A stretch of 64,000 bases of DNA from Candidatus Omnitrophota bacterium (GCA_015233675.1 JADFXH010000007.1:44162-108161); one strand, 5' to 3'. Counted from the first letter of the stretch, positions 33,224 through 61,563 are shown. The notes: generated by a model from the sequence alone, not told the origin. A program made the numbers and translations.

Positions 33224-34390
33224 TTACAAATTTTCCAATTCAGCTTTTAGCTCTTTATTTAATGCCTCAACACCGGCCAAATCCTGTTCTTTATCAAGAG
33301 GAAGCACAAAATAAAAAATCTTTCGCTCATTCTTTAAAGATGAAAACCCGATTACCCCTTTATGGCTTTTTATAATGGTAAAAGAAACGGAAAGACCAAG
33401 GCCGGTCCCTTTACCCGGGGCCTTAGTGGTAAAAAAGGGCTCAAAAAGATTCTCCTCTGATCCGCTTTTGACCGCTATCCCATTATCAATAACACCGGAG
33501 ACAATTGCGGGGAAGTTCTTCAATTTTTTAGAAATAAACCAGATGTGGCCGCCTTCCTGTTGATTAAATTTCTCATCAATGGCATCACGGGCATTGATCA
33601 GGAAATTAACCACCACATCCTGGATCTGGTAGCGGTCAATATAAACCTCAGGGAGGTCTTCTTGCAGTTGTAATTCCACGGCAATATTGTGGTCCTTGAA
33701 CTGTTGCGTCAAAAGAAAAAGTCCGTCAGTGATCGGGCGTTTGACGTCCCCTTCGGTAAAGGTGCCCATACGGCTACCGGAATATTCATGCATCCGCTTA
33801 ACGATAGTGCCAAGCCTGACAAACTGGTCCTTGATCTTGAGCATCTTGTTTTTCAGCACCAAATTTGTCACGAGAGCATCATTCATCAAGAGTCCCTCGA
33901 GATAGGATGATATGGCCATCAAAGGCTGGTTCATTTCATGGGCAACACCGGCACCCAATTCCCCCATCGCGGTCAATTTCGCAGCCCGTAAAAGCTGTGT
34001 CTGTTGGATTTTTAACTGCAGGTACAATCTTTGATTTTCCGCGGCCCGGTTGATATTCATACACAGTTCTTCTAAATTAAAAGGTTTAATAATATAATCA
34101 AAAGCCCCTTTTTTTAATGAGGCAATAGCGCTTTCCATGTCCCCATGCCCTGTCAGCATAATCACCTGCGCCTCGGCGTTCATGAGTTTAACTTTTTCCA
34201 GCATTTCCATGCCATCCATGCCGGGCATCGAAATATCGCAAATGATCACTTCCGGTTTCTCTTTGACAAAAGCTTCCAGGCCTTGCTCGCCGCTTGAGGC
34301 AACAAAAACCTCATAGTTCTTGAGTTCCAAGCTGCTTTTGAGCATCTTGCGCTGTATTTCTTCATCATCTACAATCAATATTTTTATCAT
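33224..34390 (-). CDS. receiver-histidine kinase fusion (REC-HisKA-HATPase)
   Basis: [14 protein letters not shown] ... [12 protein letters not shown] receiver, H-box [11 protein letters not shown]-box NARDAI and G-box GKGTGLGLS. Confidence 0.85.
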
Positions 34391-34413
34391 CTTTTTTAAT
34401 TCCCCTTCCCATA

Positions 34414-36027
34414 TCAGGATTTTTCAACGAAGGCGCGTTGTAAATTTTCAAAATTAATTTTTACCTGAAAATATAATTTCTTGATCTCTTCAATACTCCC
34501 TTTCTCTCTTGCCAGATTGTTTATCTCTGCGGCAGGCGTCGACACCGAAGTCAGCCTCAAATTAGAAAAAACCCCCTTTAGTATGTGCGAAGTTTGATCG
34601 ATATGAGTAAAATCATTTTCTACAATCGCTTTTTCTAAATTAGCAACGTCTGCACTTCCTTCCTCCACAGCCCCCCGCGCTATTTTTAAGTAAATATCTA
34701 GGGGGCATTGCAATTCTTTAGAATTTTGCTGGACCATTTCTTCAAACGAATTGATGTTGTTTTCATTGTTCATAGTTTCCCCTTCGCTAACCCCTCCCGC
34801 CAAGGGGAGGGAATCTAATTTGTTATTGCCCCCTCTCTCCAGGGGCGTAGAATTTAATGAACTATTGCCCCCCCCCACCAAAGGTGTGGAATTTAATGAG
34901 CTATTATGGTCTTTCTCAAGTTCAAGAGCCTTGATCTGCAGGGCCTTGATCTGGTCCTCATATTTCTGGATCATCTGGTCCATATGAATGGATTTGCGGA
35001 ATTCCTCAAACTCCTTGCCTTGGGCAAACTGCGCTATCGACTCAACCGCGCCTTTTGTCTTTTCATCGATAAGCTCAAGTTTCATCTTGCCTTCTTGGAT
35101 ACGCAATTTGATCTTGTGCAGTTCTTTCTTTTCTTCATCCATCAGCTTTTCAATATGAAACATTTCAATCTCTGATTTTTTGAAACGGGCCATACGTTCG
35201 CTTGTATCCTTCTGTGCGAGCGTCATGCGCTCGATCTGGTCAGTAAGACGCTTAATCACACTTTCCTTAACTGCGAGTTCTTCATTATTTTGCGGTACGT
35301 TCTTGCCCTGTTGCTCCATCATTGACAGCTGGGCCTTGAGCTTCACGAGCTCTTGCTCTTTCTGGCCGGACTCGGTTGCTTTTGTCTCAAGCTCAGCTTT
35401 AAGATTCTTAACTTCACTCAGAAGACGATTGATCTCGGTTTCCTTGACTGCGATTTCTTCAGTTTTTTGTAAGGCGCTCTTGCTTTCTTCTCCTAATCTT
35501 ATCAGCTCAACCTTGAGCTTCACAATCTCCTGTTCTTTCAAAGTGAATTCGTTCGCCTTGCCCTGGAGTTTTACTTTAAGACTCTCCACTTCACTGAGCA
35601 GGACCCTGTTCTCGCTTTCCTTATGCGCAAGCTCTTCACTGTTTTGAGAAACGTTTTTACCCTGTTCCTCCATTTTTGCCAACTGGACCTTGAGTTTCGT
35701 AAGCTCTAGTTCTTTCTGGGAGGACTCAGTCGCCTTTGACTCGAATTCTTCTTTAATCCTGCGCACTTCACCGACCAAATCCCGAAGATCATTATTTTTT
35801 GAAAGCAATTCTTCATTTTTTCGTGAGGTCTCAGCTTGCAATCTGTCGGATTCTTCTTTTATTTGTTCCAGCTCTTTCTTAAATTTCTCTGGAGCGGTTT
35901 CCGCAAAACTCAACTGCTCCTTTAATATTTTGATCTGCTTGTTTAATTTTGCGTCCTCATTAATGATATAAATGACAACACCGATAGCAACCACAGCACA
36001 CGTTATTGAAAAAATTATTAGGATCAT
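34414..36027 (-). CDS. membrane-anchored long coiled-coil protein with C-terminal HPt (histidine phosphotransfer) domain
   Basis: 537 aa. Contains an N-terminal TM (ILIIFSITCAVVAIGVVIYII), about 340 residues of heptad-rich E/K/L/Q sequence with about 59-aa internal repeats, and a C-terminal SHILKGVFSNLRL HPt signature. It has a 4-nt overlap with the upstream gene. Confidence 0.7.
   Translation of the reverse strand: MILIIFSITCAVVAIGVVIYIINEDAKLNKQIKILKEQLSFAETAPEKFKKELEQIKEESDRLQAETSRKNEELLSKNNDLRDLVGEVRRIKEEFESKATESSQKELELTKLKVQLAKMEEQGKNVSQNSEELAHKESENRVLLSEVESLKVKLQGKANEFTLKEQEIVKLKVELIRLGEESKSALQKTEEIAVKETEINRLLSEVKNLKAELETKATESGQKEQELVKLKAQLSMMEQQGKNVPQNNEELAVKESVIKRLTDQIERMTLAQKDTSERMARFKKSEIEMFHIEKLMDEEKKELHKIKLRIQEGKMKLELIDEKTKGAVESIAQFAQGKEFEEFRKSIHMDQMIQKYEDQIKALQIKALELEKDHNSSLNSTPLVGGGNSSLNSTPLERGGNNKLDSLPLAGGVSEGETMNNENNINSFEEMVQQNSKELQCPLDIYLKIARGAVEEGSADVANLEKAIVENDFTHIDQTSHILKGVFSNLRLTSVSTPAAEINNLAREKGSIEEIKKLYFQVKINFENLQRAFVEKS
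34788..34904. repeat. three tandem 39-bp units of a hairpin repeat, in-frame inside the HPt gene
   Basis: The units at 34788-34826, 34827-34865 and 34866-34904 each have the form C-rich arm / G-rich arm / GAAT(C/T)TAAT. Unit A forms a 7-bp GC hairpin (34792-34811). They translate as SLNSTPLVGGGNS / SLNSTPLERGGNN / KLDSLPLAGGVSE. Confidence 0.8.
35224..35739. repeat. about 177-bp (59-aa) tandem coding repeats, ~3 copies, in the coiled-coil region
   Basis: Protein-level repeats are KATESSQKELELTKLKVQLAKMEEQGKNVSQNSEELAHKESENRVLLSEVESLKVKLQG, KANEFTLKEQEIVKLKVELIRLGEESKSALQKTEEIAVKETEINRLLSEVKNLKAELET and KATESGQKEQELVKLKAQLSMMEQQGKNVPQNNEELAVKESVIKRL. Confidence 0.75.
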
Positions 36028-36644
36028 GCCTTTTCTCCACCAGGCTTAGGTTTTAAGCCCTTTAGCCTGCGAAGTTTTTCAAGTGTCGAATCGATCCCCT
36101 TGGATTCCTTCTCTTCAACGCCGATATCTTCAAGATTGCTTTGGACCTCTTGGTGAACATAAAGCTTGGAAAGATCAATCGACTCAAATTCGGCTGCTTC
36201 TTTAAGCTCCTGTAGCTTGTACTCGCGGGCAGGGCCGCTGAGACCTTTGAGCTCCTTTAGCATACCTGCAATCTTGTCGGAAAGCTTCTCCGATACAGCA
36301 TCGAGGGAACCTTGAAGGATCGCCCCCATATGCGTCTTAAATTCCTCGAGCGTCATGCCAGCTTGCCCCGCTGCAGGAGATGCTACAAGCGGCGCCGGCG
36401 GGACCGATAACGGGACAGCAGGGACCGGCGGCTCTGGTAGCACAGTTCTGGGCTCCTGTATCCTATTTTTCACCCGGGCCGTCACCACATCCATAGAACC
36501 CACAAATTCACCCAGCAGTAATTCCATCTCCATGAGCTCATCATTAAGCTCCTTACGTGACTGCTGAGTGGCATTGATCCTTTGAAATAATCTTGGGACC
36601 AAAACCTCGGGATCATCTATGGTATTTGTATCTTCAGGGCTCAT
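36024..36644 (-). CDS. hypothetical protein with central proline-rich linker (cluster-specific)
   Basis: 206 aa with LPEPPVPAVPLSVPPAPLVASPAAG between two helical segments. It has 4-nt overlaps at both ends, with the actin-like gene upstream and the HPt gene downstream. Confidence 0.5.
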   Translation of the reverse strand: MSPEDTNTIDDPEVLVPRLFQRINATQQSRKELNDELMEMELLLGEFVGSMDVVTARVKNRIQEPRTVLPEPPVPAVPLSVPPAPLVASPAAGQAGMTLEEFKTHMGAILQGSLDAVSEKLSDKIAGMLKELKGLSGPAREYKLQELKEAAEFESIDLSKLYVHQEVQSNLEDIGVEEKESKGIDSTLEKLRRLKGLKPKPGGEKA

Positions 36645-38032
36645 TGGCTCCCACCATTAATTGCATTAAACAAACATCCGCGCACAACACTGGTAAAAGG
36701 CTCCTTGGCGTGAAGGATATTCCCCACGGGAAATCCGAATTTAACCGATTTAATCTCCTCTTGGACGACATCAATAAAACCTGGCACCATGGATGATCCG
36801 CCTGCAAAAACGATATCAGCCGGCTCTTTAAAATGGGGAGTATCCGTGCTTTTGCCAAAGACACGGGCCATGTTCTCAATAAGATAATGGATATAATTAC
36901 GGTAATAGATCGCGATCGCTTCTTCTTCGCGGTTGGCGGGGATCTTGATACTCATGCCATGTTCCTTGATAGTTGAGACACGGGTCGTAGGGACACCAAG
37001 GACAGTCGCCGCGCTTTTATCGATCCAGTCACCGCCGCGCGTGATCGAAAACGACAGCACAGGCACAGACTTAAACGCGGCACATATATTGACCATGCCG
37101 GCCCCACAGGAAATGCCGATACCCGTAAAATCCTGATCTTCCATCTCGGAAAGGACAACGGCATATCCTTCGTCGATAACTAAAGGCTTAAAACCGATAT
37201 TCTTTAGGATCCCTTCAAAAACACCACGGTGGTAGATCGTATCCTGGTCGCGGTCAAGAGGTTTAGCGGGTACTGAAAAACAACAAACCTCGCCTTTTTC
37301 GCGAGGCTCCCATAAAATATTTTTCACTAAAAGCTGGATGATCGGGATAGACTCGGCTTCAGAAGGGTTTAATATCCCCATGTTCATGGACCGTTGTGTT
37401 TCCCGCCCGAAAATGTCCGCAAGCTCCAAAGCCATGCCACCTAAAACATAAAGTTTGTCCTGCAGGGCAACATATTTGATCTTAAGGCGTGTTAACAAAT
37501 CCTTGGTCGATTGATCACAACGCACGGAAAGAAAGGCATTGCGTTCATTCTTCACAAATACCCGTTTGTCCTCAACCTCACGGCTTGCGACAATATAGGC
37601 TGTTCCCAAGTCCAGGCCGACGCCTGTCCTGACCGCAGCGTTCCTGCCGCGGCTCAGCGCCGGAAGTACAACCGTAGTGGTTTCTTCTTCTTTGACAGGA
37701 ACCGGTTCTTGCTCTTCGCCCACCTCCTCGACCGTCTCCTCTTCCATGACAAATGCAAGCTTCTCGACAGGTGGAGGGGGAAGCTCTTCCCTTAGAAAAA
37801 CAGGCGGCTTGACGTCGCGGCCCATGGCGCGAGCACGAATATATTCGTTAATGGCGCGCAGTTTCGCGCGCATTTCGTCAACGGGAATTTCCTGGTCCCC
37901 ACGAAGTCTTTGAGGTTTAATTTCTTTTTCGTTAGAAAACTGCGGGCTCTTGCTTAGGTTGGAATAACTCTTTATCTTATCATTTATCTTTAATAATCGC
38001 TTTCTGATATCCTGCAATTCCTCATCGACCAC
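36641..38032 (-). CDS. actin-like ATPase (MamK/Mad28/MreB superfamily) with ~140-aa N-terminal extension
   Basis: GTG start at 38032 with AGAGG 7 nt upstream. Actin-fold motifs are GVGLDLGTAYIV (phosphate 1), FTGIGISCGAGMVNI (phosphate 2) and IVFAGGSSMVPGF (adenosine). It is a clear paralogue of 38134-39123. Confidence 0.7.
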   Translation of the reverse strand: MVDEELQDIRKRLLKINDKIKSYSNLSKSPQFSNEKEIKPQRLRGDQEIPVDEMRAKLRAINEYIRARAMGRDVKPPVFLREELPPPPVEKLAFVMEEETVEEVGEEQEPVPVKEEETTTVVLPALSRGRNAAVRTGVGLDLGTAYIVASREVEDKRVFVKNERNAFLSVRCDQSTKDLLTRLKIKYVALQDKLYVLGGMALELADIFGRETQRSMNMGILNPSEAESIPIIQLLVKNILWEPREKGEVCCFSVPAKPLDRDQDTIYHRGVFEGILKNIGFKPLVIDEGYAVVLSEMEDQDFTGIGISCGAGMVNICAAFKSVPVLSFSITRGGDWIDKSAATVLGVPTTRVSTIKEHGMSIKIPANREEEAIAIYYRNYIHYLIENMARVFGKSTDTPHFKEPADIVFAGGSSMVPGFIDVVQEEIKSVKFGFPVGNILHAKEPFTSVVRGCLFNAINGGSQ

Positions 38033-38133: not shown

Positions 38134-39123
38134 CTATTCTACCTCGCTTAAGCCCGCCAGGAGGCATCCTCTTGCGGTCGCGTACAACGGCTCATCGGCA
38201 AGCCTTACAGTATTGATCGGTATGGGGAAAGACAATTTCTTTAATTCTTCCTTAAAGACATCAACAAACCCGCCGATCATTGAGGAGCCTCCGGCACACA
38301 CAATATCAATGGGTTCCGGGAATTGCGGCATCTGTTCGGCTTTCTCAAATTTATTCTTGATATTGACCAGCGTATAATTAATCAGATTGCGATAATAGAT
38401 ACAGACCGCTTCTTCTTCGCGATTGGCGGGCTTGTTAATATTGATCCCTTTTTCCTTGATGGCGGTCGCCCGGTTGACCTTGATACCGAGAACTTGGGCC
38501 ACATTCTTGTCGATCCAGTCACCCGCTCGGCTCGTCGCAAAACTGATGGCAGGGATCGTCTTATAAGCAACACAAATATTAAACATACCGCCGCCGGCAG
38601 AAATACCGATACCGGTAAAATCCTTGTCTCCTAATTCCGCAAACACCACCGCATGGCCCTCATTCATGGGCTTACCGGTATATCCTAAATTCTTAAGCGC
38701 CCCGGCAATTACGCTTGAGTGGTAAACAATATTGAAGTTCGCATCAACAGGGTCAGCGGGAACGGAATAATAACAAAGCTGTCCTTTTTCATCAGGTTTT
38801 CCAAGGACCGCGTCGATCAAAAGCCCAAAAATGGGAACCGCATCCGCTTCACCGGGACTCATGACGCCATCCTGCATAGGCCGGCGCACGGTTTTATTCA
38901 TGATATTAGCAAGCTCAAAAGCAGAATCACCGAGGATATAAACCTTATTACCCATTTCGGCATATTGTACTTTTTGCTTTTTCAGCATGCTCTTGGTAAA
39001 CGAATTCGCTTCAATATCCAAGAACGTATGGCGCATCAGCTTCAACTTGATCTTGCCGTCTGCTCCCTGTTCAGAGCCAACCAGGTTCATTGTTCCGACG
39101 TCTAATCCCTTAACTTTTCCCAT
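38134..39123 (-). CDS. actin-like ATPase (MamK/Mad28/MreB superfamily)
   Basis: The start was moved to the ATG at 39121-39123 (AGGAG 8 nt upstream). Motifs are VKGLDVGTMNLV, RRPMQDGVM, FTGIGISAGGGMFNI and IVCAGGSSMIGGF. The track extension to 39186 covers a hairpin. Confidence 0.7.
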   Translation of the reverse strand: MGKVKGLDVGTMNLVGSEQGADGKIKLKLMRHTFLDIEANSFTKSMLKKQKVQYAEMGNKVYILGDSAFELANIMNKTVRRPMQDGVMSPGEADAVPIFGLLIDAVLGKPDEKGQLCYYSVPADPVDANFNIVYHSSVIAGALKNLGYTGKPMNEGHAVVFAELGDKDFTGIGISAGGGMFNICVAYKTIPAISFATSRAGDWIDKNVAQVLGIKVNRATAIKEKGININKPANREEEAVCIYYRNLINYTLVNIKNKFEKAEQMPQFPEPIDIVCAGGSSMIGGFVDVFKEELKKLSFPIPINTVRLADEPLYATARGCLLAGLSEVE

Positions 39124-39158
39124 ACGAAAAACTCCTTTTTTAACGCCCCCACCTAAGC

Positions 39159-39176
39159 GCCTGCCTGCTGGCAGGC
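39159..39176. repeat. intercistronic GC hairpin
   Basis: GCCTGCC-TGCT-GGCAGGC, a 7-bp stem with a 4-nt loop, lies between the coiled-coil gene stop (39211) and the actin-like gene start (39123). Confidence 0.5.
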
Positions 39177-39210
39177 TTCTCCCCATCAGTGAGGAGGAAT
39201 AATAGGATTC

Positions 39211-40023
39211 CTATTTATGTTTAGCTTTATAGTAATGTTCTCTGGCACGAGCCCTGGTATCAGCAAGCATCAGACGAATCTCATCAAGGCTCTCCTTGCT
39301 GCGCTCAAGTTCACGGCTGGCCTGGTCTCTTTCAGCAATGATACTGCCAAGTTGGGTTTCCGCCGCATCAAGTTTCCCTGAAATGGATTCTTTCTCATCC
39401 TCCAAAAGCGAAACCTGATGGTGCAGGCTCTGGATCGTCTTGTTAGCGCTCGAAAGCTCAAGCTCAATTTGTTCGATCCTGGTATCACGGGCTTCGCACT
39501 CTTTCTCAAGAGCCGCCATCTTGTTTGTCTGGTCCTTGATGACTGCTTCCCTGCCCTCAAGTTCTTCTTCCACAGACTTCATTTTTCCGACTGACTCAAG
39601 CCGTTCATTTTCAAGAAACTCGAGCTCGGAATTAAGCTCTTCCTGAGAAACCAGCAAACCTTTCATCTCTTTTAACTTTGCCTCGGCGATGGCCGCCTTT
39701 TCTTCCGCCTTTTGGCAACGCTCTTTTAAATTATTAATATCCTTTTCCTGGGCATCCTTAAGACTAAATGAAGCATCCAACTGCTTCTCTAGGTCTCCAA
39801 TGATTTCAAAAACGCTGACCTTCTCCTCCTCGGGAGACATGATATATTTTGTCGAATCCTTAATCTGCCTGACCGCAGAACGGATGGCCGCCTTTGATTC
39901 TGAGGACGTCGTTGCCGGCCTTTGGATCGCTGGCTTTATTGTTGACTGAAGAAGCGGATTATCTATGAGCTTGCTTTTTCTTGAATCCATGCCCCTGTTA
40001 GCTAACTTTTCTTGTTTTTCCAT
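39211..40023 (-). CDS. coiled-coil protein (cluster-specific)
   Basis: 270 aa, of which about 190 residues are E/K/L/Q-rich heptad sequence. Strong RBS AAGGAGA lies 6 nt before the ATG at 40023. It overlaps the ParA-like gene end by 26 nt. Confidence 0.55.
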   Translation of the reverse strand: MEKQEKLANRGMDSRKSKLIDNPLLQSTIKPAIQRPATTSSESKAAIRSAVRQIKDSTKYIMSPEEEKVSVFEIIGDLEKQLDASFSLKDAQEKDINNLKERCQKAEEKAAIAEAKLKEMKGLLVSQEELNSELEFLENERLESVGKMKSVEEELEGREAVIKDQTNKMAALEKECEARDTRIEQIELELSSANKTIQSLHHQVSLLEDEKESISGKLDAAETQLGSIIAERDQASRELERSKESLDEIRLMLADTRARAREHYYKAKHK

Positions 40024-40759
40024 TCAGGATCTCCTTTGCTAATTGACGGTAAGCCTCCGCCCCTTTGGAAGTCTTGTCATACTTATATATAGGAAGGTGG
40101 GCATTATGGGCTTCTTCTATCTTGATATTCTCCGGGATCACGGCCTTAAAAACCTTCTTGCCAAAATAATTCCTGATGGCGTCACGAGCCTCATTGGTCA
40201 CAACACGCTCGCGGTATCGGGTGATCACGACCCCGGTTATCTCAATATCGGAACCAAGTCCATGGCGGACATTCTCAACAATTTCTTCTAAAAGCTTGAT
40301 CCCTTTCAGGGAAAAAAATTCAGGGCAAATAGGCACAACAAGTTCATGACAAGCCGTCAGGGCATTGACAGTCAAAAGCCCCAAAGACGGCGGAGCGTCA
40401 ACAATCATAAAATCATACTTGAGCTTCTGCGTATAATGGTACAGCACTTTTTCGCGGCCGATATGCTCGTTAATCCGCAAAGTGGCGCCTGAGAGTTCAA
40501 TATCACTAGGCACGACGTCAATCCCAAAAGCATCGGAATGCTGGACGACGGTACGGATATCCATCTTATCGACAATGACATTATAAATATTAAATTCAAA
40601 ACGCTGGTTACCGAAGATGGCCGCCGTGGAAGAATACTGAGGGTCCATGTCAATTAAAATAACCTTTTTACCCGCCCGCGCAAGTTCAGCGGCCAGATTC
40701 AATGAAGTTGTGGTCTTGGCAACGCCGCCTTTTTGATTAGCGACACAGATTTTTCTCAT
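39998..40759 (-). CDS. ParA/MinD-family P-loop ATPase
   Basis: Deviant Walker A ANQKGGVAKTTTS with the signature lysine, IDMDPQ, and Walker B-like FMIVDAPPSLG. Confidence 0.85.
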   Translation of the reverse strand: MRKICVANQKGGVAKTTTSLNLAAELARAGKKVILIDMDPQYSSTAAIFGNQRFEFNIYNVIVDKMDIRTVVQHSDAFGIDVVPSDIELSGATLRINEHIGREKVLYHYTQKLKYDFMIVDAPPSLGLLTVNALTACHELVVPICPEFFSLKGIKLLEEIVENVRHGLGSDIEITGVVITRYRERVVTNEARDAIRNYFGKKVFKAVIPENIKIEEAHNAHLPIYKYDKTSKGAEAYRQLAKEILNGKTRKVS

Positions 40760-40763
40760 GGAT

Positions 40764-41066
40764 TCACTCTGACTTTCCTGATTCTAATAAAGCAGTTGCA
40801 TCACTAAACAAAGCGCCTATCTGAAAACATACGCTATTTAAAAATCCTTTGCGTGAAGAACTCTCGGCCTTAGAACTTTTGATAACTGTTTTATATTCCG
40901 GTTTCGTAACTGCAGAACTCGGCACTTCGACAACGTCCTGCTGTAAAGCGCGGACTTTCTTTATCCGGGAAACGGTCTTCCTGATAGGAAGCGACGATGC
41001 GCCCTTGACTGCAACCGCCTTTGACTTGGCAGGACTCTTTTTTTGTTTCTTCTTAGCCTGTGGCAA
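40764..41066 (-). CDS. small highly basic protein (Lys-rich N-terminus)
   Basis: 100 aa beginning MPQAKKKQKKSPAKSKAVAVKG. It lies 4 nt upstream of the ParA-like gene. Confidence 0.45.
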   Translation of the reverse strand: MPQAKKKQKKSPAKSKAVAVKGASSLPIRKTVSRIKKVRALQQDVVEVPSSAVTKPEYKTVIKSSKAESSSRKGFLNSVCFQIGALFSDATALLESGKSE

Positions 41067-41078
41067 AGCTTCTCCTTA

Positions 41079-41267
41079 TTAGCCCTTCGCGTAACCCTCG
41101 TAGAAGGATTCTTTCGCATCAGTTAAGATCGAAGTCATCTTTTCGCCGGCCCCATCGATTGATCCCTTGACCTTTTTGATGAAGTCAGGATTTTTCTTTT
41201 CCAATATCTTGTAACCAACAACACCGACAAAAACCACGGCCACTGCCGCTAATAAACCTTTAAACAT
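41079..41267 (-). CDS. small single-TM protein with amphipathic tail
   Basis: 62 aa. The N-terminal TM is LLAAVAVVFVGVVGY, followed by a charged helix. Confidence 0.4.
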   Translation of the reverse strand: MFKGLLAAVAVVFVGVVGYKILEKKNPDFIKKVKGSIDGAGEKMTSILTDAKESFYEGYAKG

Positions 41268-41269
41268 AG

Positions 41270-42304
41270 CTACCCCCTTGTTAAGTTTCGTTTAAATTTT
41301 GTCTGATTCTCTCGCCACCAGAACCTCCAAGACTCAATAGCGTCTTCCTTATCCCTTTTCGTGGACTTGGCTTTAAAGCCAAAATCCTCACCCGTTATTT
41401 TCTTTAATGATGCCGCAGCCGTTAACTGGACATCGCTTTCAGGATCTGCCAAAAGCGTAATAAGCCCTGATATAGCTTGTGGCACCTTCAGAGCACCGGA
41501 AATCTGGCTTGCGGCCTTTCTGACACCGGAATCCGGATCATGCAAAGCATTAACAGCATAAATCACGCATTTATCGCCAAAGCTCCAGCAAAGGCAATTT
41601 AAAATCTGCCTGCGCACCTCAGGGTCTTTATCTTTTATGAAAGAAACTAAAATATTAAAGCCTTCATCATCGTGATATTTGGAGATAGCCCGCAGGGCTG
41701 CCAGACGTATGCCTGTATCCTGGTGGTGAATGAATTTCTTGAATACATCTTTAGAAGTGGTTGCCTCTTCGCTGATAAATGCCAAGGCATTTAATAATTC
41801 AATGATCTGCAAAGTGTCTTGCTCGCGGGAAAGCAGATCTTCAAGCATCGCGGTTGCTGTGGCCCCCGAAAGCTTCTTGATCTGGCGCAAGGCCTGCATC
41901 CGTATGGCCCTGCTGGGCGACTGGAGGTCCCTAAAATATATTTCCACCTCGACCTCTTCGGTCTTGTTGGCATATGCCATATCTTTCATTGCGACCATAC
42001 GATTAGCAGGCTTCTTCGGGGCAACAGGCTCTGGAGTTATTCTCTCTAAAACAGCCGGAGGCGCTTCTGCCAGAGGCGATTCTTCCGTAGCTACCAAGGG
42101 AGCTGTTGGGATAATCACCGGCGACGGAGCTTGAGGCTGGACAACAGGAATAGGCATGGACACAGAGGACTTTGGAAAACTCTGACGTGGCATACTCTTG
42201 CCAAATGTAAAAAGATAGTTAAATTCTTTTTCCACGCCTTTGACCGCAGCTCCAAGAAAATGAGCCAAATTGTTCTGACCACCCGACGGAATTTTTGTTT
42301 GCAT
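41270..42304 (-). CDS. HEAT-repeat (PBS-lyase type) protein
   Basis: The C-terminal 200 aa contain repeats SPSRAIRMQALRQI, HQDTGIRLAALRAI, DKDPEVRRQILNCL, DPDSGVRKAASQI and DPESDVQLTAAASL. The N-terminus is proline-rich. Confidence 0.7.
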   Translation of the reverse strand: MQTKIPSGGQNNLAHFLGAAVKGVEKEFNYLFTFGKSMPRQSFPKSSVSMPIPVVQPQAPSPVIIPTAPLVATEESPLAEAPPAVLERITPEPVAPKKPANRMVAMKDMAYANKTEEVEVEIYFRDLQSPSRAIRMQALRQIKKLSGATATAMLEDLLSREQDTLQIIELLNALAFISEEATTSKDVFKKFIHHQDTGIRLAALRAISKYHDDEGFNILVSFIKDKDPEVRRQILNCLCWSFGDKCVIYAVNALHDPDSGVRKAASQISGALKVPQAISGLITLLADPESDVQLTAAASLKKITGEDFGFKAKSTKRDKEDAIESWRFWWRENQTKFKRNLTRG

Positions 42305-42356
42305 AAAATATTACCTGTCAAGTAAAGGTTGCCCCTGAACATTAAATTGCTTTTTT

Positions 42357-42384
42357 ATTATAAAGTCGTGAAAATAAAAAGCAA
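42357..42384 (-). promoter_or_regulatory. candidate internal sigma70-type promoter (TTGCTT-16 nt-TATAAT)
   Basis: On the minus strand, TTGCTT (42379-42384) and TATAAT (42357-42362) are separated by a 16-nt spacer. The site is in an AT-rich 99-nt gap about 50 nt upstream of the ATG at 42304. Confidence 0.3.
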
Positions 42385-42403
42385 GAAATTATAAAAAAAT
42401 AAA

Positions 42404-42589
42404 TCAAATGTCTTTTGACTTTTTTAGCAAGTCTTCCTTCTTCTGTTTGACATAATCAATGAGTCCTGTTAAACGCTCAACTTCCAGCTCAAGGTCCTTG
42501 CTGTGGCCGCCGTATGTAAATACGATCCTGTGGTCCCTGTGCCATTCGTAAAATTGCCTGCCCAGAGCTTGAAAACAGCGTTTATCCAT
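42404..42589 (-). CDS. small hypothetical protein
   Basis: 61 aa counted from the ATG at 42589 (MDKRCFQALGRQFYEWH...). No family was recognised and coding status is uncertain. Confidence 0.25.
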   Translation of the reverse strand: MDKRCFQALGRQFYEWHRDHRIVFTYGGHSKDLELEVERLTGLIDYVKQKKEDLLKKSKDI

Positions 42590-42634
42590 ATGCTTGACAC
42601 TCCATGCGGGCCGACACAAAATCGGCCCCTACAA

Positions 42635-42979
42635 TCAACCAATCAACATTTTTAAAGCCCGGCTTACAGCAGCGGAAGCTTTGCCCGCGCTGTATGCGCC
42701 CACTGCGATAAAATCCCGCGGCTTCACATCTTTAAGATCAGACTTAAACTGACGGCTAACACCCTTGAACATCAAAATTGTTTCATCCGTGATCTTTTTG
42801 CCCTTAAGGCCCTTAAGCTTGCTGTCCTCATCCAGGATAATATCCGCAACGCGCTGGGCGCTTTCTGATACGTTATGACCAATGCCAGCCACGGACTTTT
42901 TGATAATAGCGGCCTTGCGGCCCACATCTTTAGCCTCTATGACCTTTTTAATCTTTTTTTTCTTCGTCGAACTTGGCAT
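42635..42979 (-). CDS. small basic hypothetical protein (cluster-specific)
   Basis: The start was moved to the ATG at 42977-42979 (MPSSTKKKKIKK...), 1 nt after the stop of the upstream 565-aa gene. The track extension overlaps that gene. Confidence 0.45.
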   Translation of the reverse strand: MPSSTKKKKIKKVIEAKDVGRKAAIIKKSVAGIGHNVSESAQRVADIILDEDSKLKGLKGKKITDETILMFKGVSRQFKSDLKDVKPRDFIAVGAYSAGKASAAVSRALKMLIG

Positions 42980-42980
42980 A

Positions 42981-44678
42981 TTATTTCCGTCTTTTATTTT
43001 CCGCTGGCAAAACCGCTTTCTGCCCGAGCTTGTTGCCGGCAGCACTCTCCCTTTGTAAATCACGCAAGAGACGAGGTTTGGTATAACTTTCTTTAGCGAT
43101 CGCCTTCCAAACCCGCGCCTGCCGCTTGCGCTCAGGAAGAGGCGCTGAATAATCATACCCCTTATCTGTCCCGGTTATTGCCATAAGGGCTTCAATAGTT
43201 TCTTTACAAACCTTAATATTAACTGATTCTAGTTTCGGGACTAAAGTCACAAAGGCAAAATGGTTCGCCATAATCCCAAGCTTGCGAATCGCCAAACGAG
43301 CAACTCCTTCATCGCTATCACCGGAAAGACGCGCAATGGCCTCTGCTTCGGGACCACCGGCCCTGTGATCGAGATGGTTGACGATAAAACGTCTGATATG
43401 AGCATCAGGATCCCTGATAGCGGACACGATAACATGCTTTGCTTCCTCGGAGCCGAGCTTAACGAGCCCCATCATCCCCTGCAGCCGAAGCGAAGAATTC
43501 TCATCATTGATAAAGCGACGATAAACATCGACCATGGTCGGATAGTCCAGCGTGCCCAAAAGTGAAATGAGCTTCCTTTGAAAAAAAATATCCGCTTCAC
43601 GGGTGAGTTCATAAAGAAAAGGGACCGCCCTTTTAGGAGCATTACGAAAAAGAGTATGTAAGACCGCGAGCTTATCATCATCCGAAGTGCTCTCATTTCC
43701 CAGTTTGCGTGAGGCGGTCTCCAACAGGCCGTAGTCTCCCTGGTCCTCGAGCTCTTCGTCATTTCCGTTCTCAACGACTTCCTGTTGTTCGGACAAAACT
43801 TCTTCTTGTGTTTCACCAGAAACTTCTTCGGCGAGATCTTCCGGATATTCCGGTAGCGGCACAGGAGGTTCCAACGGCTGGGTGACAGGACGGAAAGATC
43901 CCTGACGGTCAATACGCGCCAGCTCAAGGTCTTTTTCATAGACATCGTTGATATTTTTAAAAAGGACGATGACCTCGTCGATAAGGTCATCCACACGCCT
44001 GGTCGTCTCGTTGACTTCCAGCCTAATCTGCTCAAGGAAAGACTCTTCAGCCTTCCACATGGCAACCTCGGGATTGTCCGCAAAAAATTTCTTTTTATTT
44101 TCCATAATACGTTTGATCTCCTCCCGCTTCTGGGCCATCAAAAAAGTAATCTTTTGGATCTTTTCATCCACAGCGGCCTGATAAGCCGCAGTCCTCTCGC
44201 CAGTAGTGTGCATAAGACCCGCAGAAAGACAATCACTCAAATCCTTCTGGACATCGAGGATCTTATTTTCGGCCACACGCAACGCAACATTAAGCTTAGT
44301 GTATGGCTCAAATTGCCCCCGCCGGGATATCCCGGATGGGCGCTGTTCTTGACTAACAGGCGCTGGCGCAAAAGAAACATCAGCCTCTCCCACACAGTTA
44401 ATCGGCAGGGATTCTGAAACTTTGAATTTTGGCAATGGCTCGGACTTAGCTACCGATAAAGGCTCCCGCTTCTCTTTTCTGTCAGAAATCTTTTCTGCGA
44501 CAACATCCCTGATAAGCCGCTTGGCTACAACCGTTAATTTAGGATTATCCGGTTCAAAATAATAAGCAATAGCCCCTGCCTGAATATTCTCATAAAGCAG
44601 CCTGCCGAAGGTGATGAATAAAGAATCAGCCTGTTTTTCGCATTCCTGAAGAAATTCACGTGTATTTTTTGTTGGCAT
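42981..44678 (-). CDS. coiled-coil plus HEAT-repeat protein
   Basis: 565 aa. Contains a helical N-terminal half, an acidic linker (EEVSGETQEEVLSEQQEVVENGNDEELEDQ), and HEAT units DENSSLRLQGMMGL, DPDAHIRRFIVNHL and DSDEGVARLAIRKL. Its start overlaps the upstream stop in a TAATG arrangement. Confidence 0.65.
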   Translation of the reverse strand: MPTKNTREFLQECEKQADSLFITFGRLLYENIQAGAIAYYFEPDNPKLTVVAKRLIRDVVAEKISDRKEKREPLSVAKSEPLPKFKVSESLPINCVGEADVSFAPAPVSQEQRPSGISRRGQFEPYTKLNVALRVAENKILDVQKDLSDCLSAGLMHTTGERTAAYQAAVDEKIQKITFLMAQKREEIKRIMENKKKFFADNPEVAMWKAEESFLEQIRLEVNETTRRVDDLIDEVIVLFKNINDVYEKDLELARIDRQGSFRPVTQPLEPPVPLPEYPEDLAEEVSGETQEEVLSEQQEVVENGNDEELEDQGDYGLLETASRKLGNESTSDDDKLAVLHTLFRNAPKRAVPFLYELTREADIFFQRKLISLLGTLDYPTMVDVYRRFINDENSSLRLQGMMGLVKLGSEEAKHVIVSAIRDPDAHIRRFIVNHLDHRAGGPEAEAIARLSGDSDEGVARLAIRKLGIMANHFAFVTLVPKLESVNIKVCKETIEALMAITGTDKGYDYSAPLPERKRQARVWKAIAKESYTKPRLLRDLQRESAAGNKLGQKAVLPAENKRRK

Positions 44679-45169
44679 TATACTTCCGCAACATCCTTGG
44701 TGACATTTTCAATTTCTTTTTCAAGATCAAGATTAACCGGCGCTTTTTTTTCGATCTGAGCCTTACTTTTAGTTTTTCTGACAGGACTTTTAGCGTTGGT
44801 CTTCTTACCCACGACTTTCTTTTTATGCGCAACAGGGACTTCAATAACAGCCTCTTTTTTCTGCAGGGTTGTTTTCTTGGATGAGCTCTGGAGGTGTCCT
44901 TCACCGACAGAATCCATCCCAGCCTTAAAAGACGCCCTTATTTCCCGCGTGCTTTTCTCAACGGTATCGGTCACCTGGCCCAATACAACCTCAGCCTTCT
45001 CACCAAAGGATTCACAAATATCCTGAGTTGCCACGACCATGCTTTTCAAAGGCTTCTTTTCTGCTACCTGGCCTAACTCCACAACCTTTTTGCAAAGAAA
45101 CCCCGTCTTGTACGAAAGGGTCTTTAAGAGCCCTATTATTTCATCTTTCTTACCTTTTTCTTTTACCAT
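44678..45169 (-). CDS. Lys-rich hypothetical protein (cluster-specific)
   Basis: 163 aa. It overlaps the upstream gene by 20 nt. No family was recognised. Confidence 0.45.
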   Translation of the reverse strand: MVKEKGKKDEIIGLLKTLSYKTGFLCKKVVELGQVAEKKPLKSMVVATQDICESFGEKAEVVLGQVTDTVEKSTREIRASFKAGMDSVGEGHLQSSSKKTTLQKKEAVIEVPVAHKKKVVGKKTNAKSPVRKTKSKAQIEKKAPVNLDLEKEIENVTKDVAEV

Positions 45170-46271
45170 AATTTTTATTCCTTTTTCTTTCGGGCATGAG
45201 CTTTTCTAATGCCTTCTCAGCCGCTTTTTTAACGTCTTGCTCTTTATCAGAAAGCAAATTCTTGACTACGGTCAGCGCTCCCTCGGGTTTAACGATTGAC
45301 AACATCTCCAGCAAACTTATACGGACATAAGGATTAGTGTCTTCCCAAGCTGTAATTGCCTTCTTAACACCTTCCTTGCCATAATAAATCCCCAAATAGG
45401 TCACGGCAAGCCCGCGGATATGCTCGTCACTGTCACTCAACAGGCCATCGAGAATCTTACGGTTCCTGTCACTCACATGACTGCCGAGCCCCTTGACCGC
45501 CGCTGTCCTGACCTTGGCATCAGCGTCATTCATGCCCAAGTCAAAGAATCCTTCAGCTTCGCCTTGTTTCATCCGTGATACATTCTTGATAACAGCAAGG
45601 CGGACCAGGCTGCTCTCATCCTTCATCGCAAATTCGTAAACCTGGTGCAGGATATCTTTCGGGGTAATATGGGCGATCTGGCCGATAGCGACCTCGCGTT
45701 CACGCTGGGTGCCCATTGAAAGCTGATTGATATTCTTTTCAAAAAGCCTCCTGTCCGCATCACAATTGAAACTGGCCGTCTCCAAAAGCCGGGTTAAAGT
45801 GTCATCCGGCCTGATCCTCTCCTCAACAAACGGAGAGCTCGCTGAACTTTCTTCCTCAACGGCTTTATTAACCTCAGATTCGACAGTACTCGTTTCTTCA
45901 AGCTCAATTTCGTCTTCTACTACGGCCTCTTGCTGGATCTCACCTTCATCTTCCTTTTCATCTTCTACTGCAGATTCCGCTTCAAGCTCATCTTCAACCT
46001 CATCTTCAATCTCATCTTCCTCTTGATAGACGGCTGTGTCATCCTCTGACTCTTCCTCATCTTCATCCTCAAGCTCCTCAATCTTCGTTATCCTTTCATC
46101 CAGATAATCCAAAAGCCTCGTAATCTTTTCAATCTCTTGTTCTTTTGGGCGGTCTTCAGATGCAAAACCAAAACTTATCTCTTTAGATTTATAAAGTTTA
46201 TAAACCGCTTCGCCGAACAAAAAGATCAACTTTCTCTGTTTAGACTTAAGTTCTTGCAGATGTTGATCCAT
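45150..46271 (-). CDS. acidic-domain plus HEAT-repeat protein
   Basis: RBS AGGAGAG lies 7 nt before the ATG. Residues ~65-150 are extremely Glu/Asp-rich (EELEDEDEEESEDD...EDEIEDEVEDELEAES...). The C-terminal HEAT units are DADAKVRTAAVKGL, DSDEHIRGLAVTYL, DTNPYVRISLLEML and DKEQDVKKAAEKAL. Confidence 0.65.
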   Translation of the reverse strand: MDQHLQELKSKQRKLIFLFGEAVYKLYKSKEISFGFASEDRPKEQEIEKITRLLDYLDERITKIEELEDEDEEESEDDTAVYQEEDEIEDEVEDELEAESAVEDEKEDEGEIQQEAVVEDEIELEETSTVESEVNKAVEEESSASSPFVEERIRPDDTLTRLLETASFNCDADRRLFEKNINQLSMGTQREREVAIGQIAHITPKDILHQVYEFAMKDESSLVRLAVIKNVSRMKQGEAEGFFDLGMNDADAKVRTAAVKGLGSHVSDRNRKILDGLLSDSDEHIRGLAVTYLGIYYGKEGVKKAITAWEDTNPYVRISLLEMLSIVKPEGALTVVKNLLSDKEQDVKKAAEKALEKLMPERKRNKNYGKRKR

Positions 46272-52918: not shown

Positions 52919-54721
52919 TTACGGAAGCATGCTTAAAAATATCAGGTAAATAGTCCCAATTGCAAGGACCATAAGAGCGACCGGGAATCCCCGGCGGCTG
53001 TAATTTGCAAAGGTCAAACCTTCATTCTTCTTGGGGTTTATCCCCAACTCCTCTACAAGAGTCTGAGAGACGATCCCTGCACTTGCCCCAGAAATGCAAG
53101 CACAAGCCCCGGCGATGGACCCAAGATTCAAGGCCCACCAGACAACATCCGTAAAATCAGCAAAACCTGAAGAAACAACAATAGGGACCAAAAAAGCCGT
53201 TGCCGGCCCGGAATTCAAAAGCGCCGTTAAAACTGTGGAAATCAGCATTAGAAAAATCGGATACAAAATCTTATTACCCATCGCCATCGTCAGAAGCATA
53301 TTGGAAATGACCTTCAAAAGGCCGGAATATAACGCTCCGCCGACAATAAGAAAAAGCGCGACAAAAAACAATATATCCATCAGGCTTATCTTTTTAATCA
53401 CGTCCCGGGCCTTCTGATTTTCAATAGCGAGCAGTAAAAACCCGCCACCCATCGCAATCGGCGCCAAGTGGACCCTAAACAACGGCAATATTATGAAAGC
53501 GACAAGGACGCATCCAAGAATAAAAAGAACCCTTTTGATCCGCGGCCAATCCATGTGCATATCCCGCAGTTCTTTTTCAACCTTCGAAAGAAAAGCCTTA
53601 TGGAGTTTCACTGACCTGATCTTGTCCTTGTGCCTCAATTCAAAAAACCACAAATACCAAAGGAAAATGGCTAAAAATACGCAACAGATCGGCCCCATGA
53701 CAATCAAAAAATCCAAAAACGATAAGCCAGCGCTTGATGCCATCAGCATGTTCGAAAAATCCCCTATCGGCGTAATGTTCCCACCGATGACTGAAGAAAT
53801 GATCTCAGCAATGACTACTGGAATAACGTCAAAATCCATGCCTCGGGCAGCATACACCGTGATCGGAATAATGACGAGAATGACCGAAATATTGTTCACG
53901 AACGCAGAGGAAATAAAAGTCATGACACACATACTCAAAATTACCTTGATCGAATCGGCTTTGGAGGCAACTATGATCTTCTTGGAAACATATTCAAAAA
54001 CACGCAGGTCTTCCAAAAATATGGTAAAAATGCTCATTCCTATATAAATGAAGATCGGGCTCACCCGAATGGCATCAAAAGCTTCGGACTGGTTGTAAAA
54101 CCCAAAGACCGAACCTGCAACCAGCATCAGTACCGCACCCAGCGTCACGCACACCGTGCGGTTAAAAAGGTTCAAAAAAAGCATGGTAAATGTGACTGCG
54201 ATGATGACCAAGACCACCAAAATATCACGCCCGCTGCCCCCCAAGATGTCGATGCCGGCATTGACAGGGATGGTATCGCTCATGTTTAAAGTCCTACCAT
54301 TACGGGAGATAACAAAGCTGATCTTGTCCCCGGGCTTGCTCTGTGACATAAGATACGCCATATGATTGGCTGACTGGACATCGATGCCGTTGCATTTAAG
54401 GATAACATCCCCGCGCCGAATATCAATGAGCCGGCGGGCAGAGCCTGCAGGCACATTGTTGACAAGGACCCCTGCCACCTGCGGAAGATTAAAGTCCCTC
54501 GCAATGATAGGATTAACGGTAATACCTTCAAATTCAATGGCATTGGTACCCCCCGACTGGGCAAGGCGCGGCGAGCCCCGCTGAGGCATATTCCTGGTAT
54601 CCATAAAAAGCGCGACCAAAACCACAATGACCACTAGGGCGATCGCTGCTTCCATGAACGGAAAATTCTTAAAACGCTTCAATTTGTCTTCGTCCATGGA
54701 TCTTCGGATGTCTAAAGCCAT
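52919..54721 (-). CDS. PDZ domain fused to ArsB/NhaD-type (CitMHS-like) ion permease; MamN-like
   Basis: 600 aa. An N-terminal TM is followed by a PDZ domain (GVLVNNVPAGSARRLIDIRRGDVILKCNGIDV...PGDKISFVISRNG), then about 11 TM spans with the two-fold permease architecture of arsenite/NhaD-type transporters. Confidence 0.55.
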   Translation of the reverse strand: MALDIRRSMDEDKLKRFKNFPFMEAAIALVVIVVLVALFMDTRNMPQRGSPRLAQSGGTNAIEFEGITVNPIIARDFNLPQVAGVLVNNVPAGSARRLIDIRRGDVILKCNGIDVQSANHMAYLMSQSKPGDKISFVISRNGRTLNMSDTIPVNAGIDILGGSGRDILVVLVIIAVTFTMLFLNLFNRTVCVTLGAVLMLVAGSVFGFYNQSEAFDAIRVSPIFIYIGMSIFTIFLEDLRVFEYVSKKIIVASKADSIKVILSMCVMTFISSAFVNNISVILVIIPITVYAARGMDFDVIPVVIAEIISSVIGGNITPIGDFSNMLMASSAGLSFLDFLIVMGPICCVFLAIFLWYLWFFELRHKDKIRSVKLHKAFLSKVEKELRDMHMDWPRIKRVLFILGCVLVAFIILPLFRVHLAPIAMGGGFLLLAIENQKARDVIKKISLMDILFFVALFLIVGGALYSGLLKVISNMLLTMAMGNKILYPIFLMLISTVLTALLNSGPATAFLVPIVVSSGFADFTDVVWWALNLGSIAGACACISGASAGIVSQTLVEELGINPKKNEGLTFANYSRRGFPVALMVLAIGTIYLIFLSMLP

Positions 54722-60251: not shown

Positions 60252-61538
60252 TTATTTCCCCCCACCAATAACAATACGCGCAGAATTCGGGTCCTGCTGT
60301 CCTGCAAAATTCTGCTGCGTTTGATTGTTCTGCATCATATTCTGATTATTCTGCGCTCCCATTGAAGATTCCAATATCTGGTGGCAATTGGAACACACGC
60401 CCCGATAAGCATGCGGCAGGGTCGCGTCGCGCGTGATCGGAGGAGCCTGTGTTGTTGGCTGCGTCATAGCGACCTGATTGCCATAATTGCCGTTGCCGTA
60501 ATAGGCATTCTGATTTTGAGCAGGCACCATAGCGGCCTGATTGCCATAATTGCCGTTACCGTAATATCCATTGGGCTGAACATTATATTGAAAATTTTGA
60601 TATTGAGGAGCCATCTGGTTATATTGCGGGGCGGTAGGCTGCATATTATTGGGCTGTTGATAGTAGCCTGGCTGTTGATACATTCCTGCCTGCCCCTGCA
60701 TGGCACCAGCTTGTATTCTTGGAATTGGGCAATATGGGTTGTTCCCCATGCCCTGTCCCTGCATATATTGACCACCCTGACCATAGGCCACTTGTGTATT
60801 CTCAACAACGCCTTGAGGCGCTTGAAAATTCTGATATTGGGGAGCCATCTGATTATATGATTGAGCGCCAGCCTGCATTCTAGGAATCGGGCAGTACGGG
60901 TTATTTCCCATGCCCTGACCCTGCATATATTGACCACCCTGACCAAACGCCACCTGTGTATTGTCAACAACACCCTGAGGTGTTTGCACAGGAACATAGG
61001 CAGGTTGAACTGTGCCATCAACAGGCTGAGGTGATGCTGATATCCTTGCCTGCCTGTAAAGCTTGACGACTTTCTGTGCACGGCCCTGATATCCGCCGAA
61101 TACCCTGATACCGAATTGCATTAAAATGTTATAATCTTGCGGAACGATATTCCCGACAATAACAGCTTCTTCCCCTTTACTGGCAACCAGATAAACAAGC
61201 TGAGTACCGGAGGCCCCGCCTCGATAGGGATTCTTGACGGCTTCAACAAGTTTCCCTGACAAAGGATTGACCACCAGGAAATAACGCGCTTCGTTTAATG
61301 TCGGAGCCACGTTAGATGCCAGGGACTGCCCGTCGGTTGCAATTACAATCATCCCGCAGGCGGGATTGCCCTGCATGGCATTTTTGGCATCTGGTGAAAA
61401 TAAGGCATAAAGGCCAACAATCAGCACCACCAAAATCGCACCAAAAATGAAAAAGGTGTTCAGGTCGGTATTTTTAAACTTCGACATGAATTCCTCAAAG
61501 GATTTTTCAAAACTTTTCCCTTGCGGTTTTTTTACCAT
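60252..61538 (-). CDS. TM anchor + NifX/NifB-C-like (Nitro_FeMo-Co type) domain + Q/N/G/Y-rich repeat region + single magnetochrome motif
   Basis: The ATG at 61538 has GGAGGG 5 nt upstream. The NifX-like region is IVIATDGQSLASNVAPTLNEARYFLVVNP...KNPYRGGASGTQLVYLVASKGEEAVIVGNIVPQDYNILMQFGIRVF. The low-complexity region has 54-aa repeats. The C-terminal LPHAYRGVCSNCH carries CxxCH at 60381-60395. Confidence 0.6.
   Translation of the reverse strand: MVKKPQGKSFEKSFEEFMSKFKNTDLNTFFIFGAILVVLIVGLYALFSPDAKNAMQGNPACGMIVIATDGQSLASNVAPTLNEARYFLVVNPLSGKLVEAVKNPYRGGASGTQLVYLVASKGEEAVIVGNIVPQDYNILMQFGIRVFGGYQGRAQKVVKLYRQARISASPQPVDGTVQPAYVPVQTPQGVVDNTQVAFGQGGQYMQGQGMGNNPYCPIPRMQAGAQSYNQMAPQYQNFQAPQGVVENTQVAYGQGGQYMQGQGMGNNPYCPIPRIQAGAMQGQAGMYQQPGYYQQPNNMQPTAPQYNQMAPQYQNFQYNVQPNGYYGNGNYGNQAAMVPAQNQNAYYGNGNYGNQVAMTQPTTQAPPITRDATLPHAYRGVCSNCHQILESSMGAQNNQNMMQNNQTQQNFAGQQDPNSARIVIGGGK
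60702..60980. repeat. 162-bp (54-aa) tandem coding repeat, ~1.7 copies
   Basis: PQGVVDNTQVAFGQGGQYMQGQGMGNNPYCPIPRMQAGA... is repeated as PQGVVENTQVAYGQGGQYMQGQGMGNNPYCPIPRIQAGA. The DNA copies are near-identical (for example CCCATGCCCTG(A/T)CCCTGCATATATTGACCACCCTGACC). Confidence 0.8.
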
Positions 61539-61563
61539 ATAATCCCTCCATATGCCGCTGATT

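Follow-up and report, generated by a model that had tools for sequence, protein, structure and literature searches.

Three HEAT-repeat proteins in an Omnitrophota magnetosome gene cluster: a probable counterpart of the mad23-mad27 chain-organisation segment

The gene string and its place in the magnetosome cluster

We analysed a 64,000-nucleotide (nt) stretch of DNA (hereafter, the window) from a Candidatus Omnitrophota bacterium (GCA_015233675.1, JADFXH010000007.1:44162-108161), focusing on three genes for HEAT-repeat proteins designated HEAT-C, HEAT-B, and HEAT-A. Positions are counted from the first letter of the window. The three open reading frames (ORFs) are on the minus strand at 45150-46271 (HEAT-C; 373 amino acids (aa), isoelectric point (pI) 4.6, NCBI MBF0571449.1), 42981-44678 (HEAT-B; 565 aa, MBF0571447.1), and 41270-42304 (HEAT-A; 344 aa, MBF0571444.1), exactly as delimited by a first-pass annotation made from the sequence alone. 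Each protein ends in a C-terminal HEAT solenoid of the phycobilisome (PBS)-lyase/alphaRep type, and NCBI labels all three merely as 'HEAT repeat domain-containing protein'. The trio sits in a genuine magnetosome gene cluster and, by analogy with Desulfovibrio (Solidesulfovibrio) magneticus RS-1, is probably the Omnitrophota form of the mad23-mad27 chain-organisation segment, that is, a soluble cytoplasmic adaptor or tether set.

Magnetosome genes occupy the upstream half of the window and include those for a MamE-like protease with PDZ, a MamA-like TPR protein, and a MamQ-like LemA protein, together with two cation diffusion facilitator (CDF) transporters, two magnetochrome proteins, TauE, FeoB, a FecR-domain protein, and DtxR/FeoA. 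The HEAT genes lie directly upstream of genes for a ParA-like ATPase, a coiled-coil protein, and two actin-like proteins, and the order is HEAT-C, p163, HEAT-B, p114, p61, HEAT-A, two small genes, ParA, coiled coil, and actin-like. A conserved string mad23-24-25-26(-27) has been published for Desulfobacterota and mad23-26 for Nitrospirota (PMC9145555, PMC8353452), and published work places mad genes in Omnitrophota. The order in the window fits mad23-24-25-26-27…29…28, with Mad23, Mad25, and Mad27 corresponding by position to HEAT-C, HEAT-B, and HEAT-A, respectively.

The genes are closely packed, and the junctions across the string range from -26 to +101 nt. The gene at the Mad24 position, p163 (44678-45169, minus strand as are all genes of the string; 163 aa, pI 9.6), starts 20 nt before the end of the HEAT-C stop codon. 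The TAATG overlap previously noted at 44676-44680 is indeed present on the minus strand, where the stop codon TAA of p163 (44680-44678) shares a base with the start codon ATG of HEAT-B (44678-44676). Further junctions of +1, +2, +4, and -26 nt were observed, the last being the overlap of the ParA-type ATPase gene with the coiled-coil gene. The interleaved small ORFs had been described as basic, in agreement with the pI values of 9.2-10.7 calculated for the ORFs between the HEAT genes. Scans of the region for promoters and terminators gave results no better than those with shuffled sequences.

At the Mad26 position, p114 (42635-42979, 114 aa, basic) starts with the ATG at 42979; a longer mechanical ORF (42635-43156) overlaps HEAT-B, and the shorter form agrees exactly with the NCBI record HQL12_06190. 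Likewise, the start of p61 (42404-42589) was placed at 42589, giving 61 aa instead of the 71 aa of the mechanical ORF, in exact agreement with HQL12_06185. No known domain was found in p163, which is kept in related loci with 27-64% identity. No family match was obtained for p114 (43-61% identity in related loci, 35% in the distant locus L016).

Architecture of the HEAT proteins and p61

The three HEAT proteins are built alike: a short putative interaction module at the N-terminus is joined by a flexible linker of low complexity to a HEAT solenoid of about six repeats at the C-terminus, and HEAT-B and HEAT-C additionally have a basic tail. The Pfam HEAT_2 scores of HEAT-A, HEAT-B, and HEAT-C were 71, 43.7, and 67.6 bits, respectively, against a gathering cut-off of 27.7 bits, and, besides one near-threshold SCD match, the families reaching their cut-offs in these proteins were all of HEAT type. 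HEAT-C contains five D-x-[DNSE]-x-x-[VIL]-[RK] motifs at residues 218, 249, 280, 311, and 342, an exact 31-residue period, compared with 0.31 motifs in shuffled sequences. HEAT-A and HEAT-B each have two strict copies spaced 31 residues apart, and their other copies appear degenerate by eye. The AlphaFold2 (AF2) models of HEAT-C and HEAT-B are indeed solenoids, with about 13-14 helices corresponding to about six repeats. Thus, the first-pass estimate of three to five HEAT units per protein was right as to the nature of the repeats, as indicated by Pfam and the motif period, and slightly too low as to their number in these two proteins.

The best matches of both modelled solenoids in PDB were alphaRep proteins (E 6e-6 to 3e-7, 23-27% identity over ~190 residues). 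Profile matches to NblB (27-31 bits against a cut-off of 300) and CpcE (28.5 against 330) were below threshold; they confirm the PBS-lyase flavour of the repeats rather than membership in these families, and no phycobilisome gene is present in the window. Comparison of the HEAT domains by hhalign gave a probability of 98.5% (E 2e-15) for HEAT-A and HEAT-B, 98.2% (E 4e-14) for HEAT-A and HEAT-C, and 75% (E 2.5e-5) for HEAT-C and HEAT-B. Judged from these profile comparisons and pairwise BLASTP, the three HEAT domains are paralogous over ~200 columns.

The AF2 model of HEAT-C, based on a 19-sequence alignment, begins with a helical hairpin (residues 2-28 and 42-74) having a predicted local distance difference test score (pLDDT) of ~80-90, followed by a segment predicted to be disordered (residues 72-127, pLDDT <50), a short acidic helix that is conserved (residues 128-144), the solenoid (residues 155-360, pLDDT >90), and the basic tail. 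The extreme Glu/Asp tract reported earlier at about 45822-46079 corresponds to residues 65-150 of this protein. It contains 34 Glu and 10 Asp in 86 residues (51%) and only two Lys/Arg, reaches 70% Asp/Glu within a 30-residue window, and has a net charge of about -42; its binomial P against the module's own composition was 6e-14. Short codon repeats (12 nt x3.3 and 6 nt x5.5) were detected in the tract with Tandem Repeats Finder (TRF), which is consistent with slippage.

We also examined whether the acidic tract is conserved in homologues, a point raised at first pass. In every one of the 19 close and 18 diverse relatives, the segment joining the hairpin to the HEAT domain was strongly acidic (21-50% Asp/Glu, net charge -10 to -48), and its length varied from 33 to 210 residues. 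Pairwise identity within the family was 27% in the linker, compared with 52% in the hairpin and 57% in the HEAT domain. Such conservation of charge, with sequence and length free to vary, is typical of a disordered spacer under selection for charge and not of a structured site for binding. The tract is therefore predicted, from composition and modelling, to be a disordered linker whose charge is conserved and whose sequence and length are unconstrained.

HEAT-B was modelled with a hairpin of the same kind (residues 6-33 and 46-68), a disordered linker (68-116), three long helices (124-260), a second, acidic disordered linker (261-310, pLDDT <50), and the solenoid (308-552) with its basic tail. 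The acidic linker is shorter than that of HEAT-C and has the same properties, with 22-46% Asp/Glu in 18 homologues. Most HEAT-B relatives (P0025 and P0027-P0036; columns ~100-200 of alignment A2) have a basic Pro-rich insertion containing the conserved motif K-N-x-V-x-A-V-L-K-G-V-x-N-V-L, which is absent from the HEAT-B of the window and its two closest relatives (P0024 and P0026). The ortholog alignment of HEAT-A shows a conserved N-terminal motif of ~35 residues, a variable Pro/Ala/Val-rich linker, the HEAT solenoid, and a conserved C-terminal W-R-F-W-W-R-E-N-Q motif. Hydrophobicity analysis indicated no membrane segment in any of the three proteins; HEAT-C also has no signal peptide.

The direct similarity between the hairpins of HEAT-C and HEAT-B was marginal (BLASTP E 0.014; hhalign E 1e-3, probability 22%). 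The p61 family, however, matched the N-terminus of HEAT-C with an hhalign probability of 96.4% (E 1.1e-9) and that of HEAT-B with 90.1% (E 1.6e-6), and thereby ties the three together. By these profile matches, p61 amounts to the N-terminal helical hairpin of HEAT-C and HEAT-B encoded on its own, and it might cap or regulate assembly through the hairpins. It is conserved with 61-76% identity in Omnitrophota loci and 41% in L022. Searches of PDB and Pfam returned no relative of the hairpin module. The N-terminus of HEAT-A was considered as a fourth copy and rejected (hhalign E 0.13-0.34). A motif common to the small basic proteins, the HEAT-A N-terminus, and the insertion of the HEAT-B relatives was also rejected (best hhalign E 0.0014, probability 17%), and hhalign detected no mutual relationship among the small basic proteins.

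Conservation of the module and neighbouring genes

The module is conserved in about 20 loci. A genome scan yielded 13 loci from Omnitrophota metagenome-assembled genomes (MAGs), which had the same module order wherever the contig reaches far enough, and the whole string was also found in the P0048 contig, L016, and L022, all of which are far more divergent. The named loci from the genome and metagenome scans are all from Omnitrophota. In L016 and L022, the HEAT proteins are 28-40% identical to those of the window, whereas the ParA-like and actin-like proteins are 70-78% identical, indicating that the adaptors evolve several times faster.

Some variants of the module were observed. Locus L023 (contig of P0050) lacks HEAT-B and encodes HEAT-C, proteins of 138 and 115 aa, a 312-aa HEAT protein, and proteins of 62, 221, and 262 aa, the last with only a faint Pfam match to a helical domain (OVT1). 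Two contigs of the MAG nDJH6bin5 (L006 and L007) each carry a full module ~50% identical to that of the window, indicating either two clusters per genome or a mixed bin. On the contigs of P0052 and P0189 (L015 and records without DNA), a hairpin-acidic linker-HEAT protein directly follows an electron-transfer flavoprotein (ETF)-ubiquinone oxidoreductase (QO) and precedes a protein of ~190 aa; the longer P0052 contig has VIT1, integrase, and transposase genes further downstream.

Downstream of HEAT-A, p62 (41079-41267, 62 aa) starts after 2 nt and has one N-terminal transmembrane helix (Kyte-Doolittle maximum 2.26 at residues 4-22). It is 63-90% identical in related loci and is a possible candidate for a membrane anchor of the soluble HEAT proteins. 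It is followed by p100 (40764-41066), identified as an ORF for a 100-aa protein of basic composition (pI 10.3). The ParA/MinD-type ATPase (39998-40759, 253 aa; Pfam AAA_31 4.8e-49, plus CbiA and ParA) is 75-95% identical across all loci; we call it Mad29-like by position, presuming that Mad29 is a ParA protein. The coiled-coil protein (39211-40023, 270 aa) gave only sub-threshold SMC and tropomyosin matches.

The first actin-like protein, which is Mad28-like (38134-39186, 350 aa, exact start uncertain), matched Pfam Volactin (1.2e-79) and, weakly, NCBIfam MamK; its 350-aa translation was absent from the protein collection. The second (36641-38032, 463 aa) matched Volactin over residues 138-457 (3.2e-81), has an N-terminal extension of ~135 aa, and is 44% identical to the first. 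Searching the window by tblastn with both proteins revealed no further actin-like gene, and no canonical MamK was found there. The tandem Volactin-type pair is also present in the P0048 contig and L016. Directly downstream of the actin-like genes, 33224-36027 on the minus strand encodes a response-regulator/histidine-kinase hybrid and an Hpt-domain protein. The gene for the latter (34414-36027) has a partial match (39%) just past the module in L002, and no related locus was found to have the hybrid gene.

Two fusions lie elsewhere in the window, both on the minus strand. At 60252-61568, a dinitrogenase FeMo-cofactor-binding (NifX/NifB-like) domain is joined to a magnetochrome domain; in L022, a FeMo-co-type domain is fused to a CDF transporter (599-1753). 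In the magnetosome cluster at 52919-54721, PDZ is fused to a CitMHS/ArsB-type transporter that is 77-89% identical in related loci.

A probable chain-organisation set, its alternatives, and known systems

RS-1 is the only deep-branching magnetotactic bacterium in which the organisation of magnetosome chains has been dissected, and Omnitrophota are uncultured. In RS-1, Mad23, Mad25, and Mad26 are a genetically defined subchain-assembly module. Mad23 consists of a short coiled coil and a HEAT domain, is 12- to 41-fold enriched on magnetosomes, and interacts strongly with Mad25 and Mad10, with self-interactions also seen; in its deletion mutant, the magnetosomes are normal in number and scattered. 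Mad25 interacts with everything tested and is the sole partner found for the actin-like Mad28, and Mad25 and Mad26 keep the subchains linear (PMC12748827). Together with the cluster context, this subchain module makes the first-pass proposal of a scaffold set for chain assembly a reasonable one. Two related claims were not supported. Several mad genes had been said to encode HEAT-repeat proteins, whereas the published accounts consulted give HEAT for Mad23 only. The acidic HEAT-C had been proposed as a candidate connector to the filament; since only Mad25 interacted with Mad28 in RS-1, HEAT-B at the Mad25 position would, by analogy, be the likelier filament contact.

On the chain-organisation reading, the hairpins would drive homo- and hetero-oligomerisation of HEAT-C, HEAT-B, and p61, in parallel with the Mad23-Mad25 interaction and the self-interactions in RS-1. 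Peptides presented by magnetosome-membrane proteins, or by the filaments and small basic proteins encoded nearby, may be the ligands of the HEAT grooves. Between the oligomerisation end and the cargo-binding end, the acidic disordered segment would serve as a flexible, self-repelling tether or spacer, with electrostatic pairing to the basic neighbours and tails as a possible further function; we do not propose it as a specific mineral-binding site. The set would thus cross-link magnetosomes into chains or subchains and couple them to Mad28-type filaments.

Several points weigh against this reading. Its functional side draws on the RS-1 experiments, and the oligomerisation of the hairpins and the ligands of the HEAT domains are what we infer. 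Position and architecture suggest the Mad23/25/27 assignment of the trio, most weakly for HEAT-A and uncertainly for HEAT-B, and for these two, HEAT-A especially, orthology is argued from position. The published description of RS-1 Mad25 gives a long coiled coil and mentions no HEAT domain (PMC12748827), which makes the orthology of HEAT-B uncertain. HEAT-A corresponds only roughly to the Mad27 position because p61 intervenes as an extra gene, and it has 344 aa, compared with ~508 aa for the putative mad27 product of FSS-1. Single-sequence searches with HEAT-C and HEAT-B and a search with an 18-sequence profile of the diverse HEAT-C family returned no Mad-named relative, and cluster look-ups of the relatives also gave no Mad names. 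The relatives with a named source are all from Omnitrophota and are labelled 'HEAT repeat domain-containing protein' or 'hypothetical protein'; an exhaustive profile search with the HEAT-C family gave ~20 full-length clusters, beyond which came generic giant HEAT proteins. Finally, the HEAT-C relatives beside an ETF-QO gene have no visible magnetosome genes nearby, so that the family may not be confined to magnetosome clusters.

A more far-reaching proposal, which we regard as doubtful, is that the trio and p61 constitute an undescribed 'hairpin-tether-HEAT' scaffold family. In such a family, the hairpin of ~50 residues would assemble HEAT-C, HEAT-B, and the hairpin-only regulator or cap, the charge-conserved acidic linkers would fix the distance from one magnetosome to the next or from magnetosome to filament, and the three HEAT solenoids would read different partners. 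If this is true, Omnitrophota-type chains would be built from duplicated HEAT adaptors that replace the long coiled-coil proteins of RS-1.

HEAT solenoids are general peptide-binding scaffolds, and a published bioinformatic proposal assigned Mad23 to protein sorting on account of its HEAT domain. The trio might accordingly comprise sorting or recruitment adaptors that, in the manner of the TPR scaffold MamA, deliver Mad or Mam proteins to the magnetosome membrane and do not link magnetosomes into chains; the conserved 62-aa membrane protein encoded next to HEAT-A would suit such a role. We consider this unlikely, since loss of mad23 in RS-1, with its normal number of scattered magnetosomes, is a chain phenotype rather than a biogenesis phenotype. 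Moreover, the HEAT genes are co-ordered with ParA-like and actin-like genes, not with mamAB-type biogenesis genes.

Another possibility is a positioning and segregation system for magnetosomes like McdA/McdB, in which the trio and the small charged proteins would serve the adjacent ParA-type ATPase as cargo adaptors or regulators and would not be static cross-linkers. The ATPase is always in the same string and is far better conserved (75-95% identity) than the HEAT proteins (28-70%), its gene overlaps the coiled-coil gene, and disordered, strongly charged segments and small basic proteins abound in the module. On the other hand, no ParA-stimulating motif or partner was identified, the published RS-1 work explains the Mad23, Mad25, and Mad26 phenotypes without Mad29, and Nitrospirota have mad23-26 inside the cluster and mad28-30 elsewhere. 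We hold such a role to be quite unlikely.

A cation-, iron-, or mineral-binding role of the acidic tract in biomineralisation or at the crystal surface, as once proposed for MamJ and as known for acidic segments of the Mms6 type, is very unlikely in our estimation: the tract's Asp/Glu content, its net charge of about -42, the negative charge kept in every relative, the crystal-associated recovery of Mad23 and Mad25 in RS-1 proteomics, and a review's speculation that acidic regions of Mad24 and Man5 bind magnetite would favour it, but HEAT-C, having no signal peptide or membrane segment, would be cytoplasmic and outside the magnetosome lumen where the crystal grows, and the tract is hypervariable, predicted to be disordered, and marked by repeats that point to slippage, as well as having a precedent in the acidic domain of MamJ described below.

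The chain-organisation reading thus places the locus in a known kind of system, the mad23-27 module, and not in a new one. Its lineage-specific features are the three paralogous HEAT adaptors, the shared hairpin with a stand-alone copy, and the charge-conserved acidic linkers. If the assignment is true, the locus reveals how another phylum builds the Mad23-27 module, and it offers defined parts: a hairpin common to three proteins that probably serves as an oligomerisation handle, three paralogous HEAT solenoids that are candidates for reading cargo, and a linker whose charge, rather than its sequence, appears to be under selection. The generic labels 'HEAT repeat domain-containing protein' and 'hypothetical protein' in databases would also gain functional context.

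Among known proteins, HEAT-C most resembles RS-1 Mad23 (DMR_40890). It is the first gene of its string in the cluster, combines a short helical or coiled-coil N-terminal element with C-terminal HEAT repeats, and has no transmembrane segment. HEAT-B resembles Mad25 (DMR_40870) in being third in the string and in having long predicted helices at residues 124-260 that would be suited to coiled coils; it differs by its N-terminal hairpin, its acidic linker, and a HEAT solenoid of ~240 residues, and its helical region of ~140 residues is far shorter than a 'filament-like' coiled coil.

The 373-aa HEAT-C had also been likened to MamJ. Both have an acidic, low-complexity, hypervariable segment in a cytoplasmic, non-enzymatic protein of the chain apparatus, and the tract parallels the acidic repetitive domain of MamJ, which is reported to be hypervariable and dispensable for chain assembly (Scheffel and Schuler 2007). 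MamJ, however, lacks a HEAT domain, and HEAT-C in turn lacks the long acidic repeat units of MamJ, having only the 6- and 12-nt codon repeats. Judged from Pfam families and TRF, and not from the MamJ sequence, HEAT-C has HEAT-type families and short repeats only and shows no domain relationship to MamJ. Because loss of Mad10, not of Mad23, resembles the mamJ deletion in RS-1, 'MamJ-like' would be at most a loose functional analogy.

In fold, both modelled solenoids are closest to alphaRep (PDB 3LTJ and 3LTM), designed binders made from PBS-type HEAT-like repeats, and share the 31-residue repeats and the D-x-D/N-x-x-V-R signature with these and with PBS-lyase-type proteins such as NblB and CpcE. 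Unlike in those proteins, the solenoid is here fused to a hairpin and a disordered linker and has no phycobilisome context. The string as a whole, compared by position and architecture, is most like mad23-27, with small and coiled-coil proteins next and an actin-like gene (Mad28 in RS-1, DMR_40840) further downstream. It is distinguished from the RS-1 string, in which HEAT has been reported for Mad23 only, by HEAT domains in the proteins at the Mad25 and Mad27 positions as well, by the extra 61-aa hairpin-only gene, and by two Volactin-type actin-like genes in place of a canonical MamK in the window.

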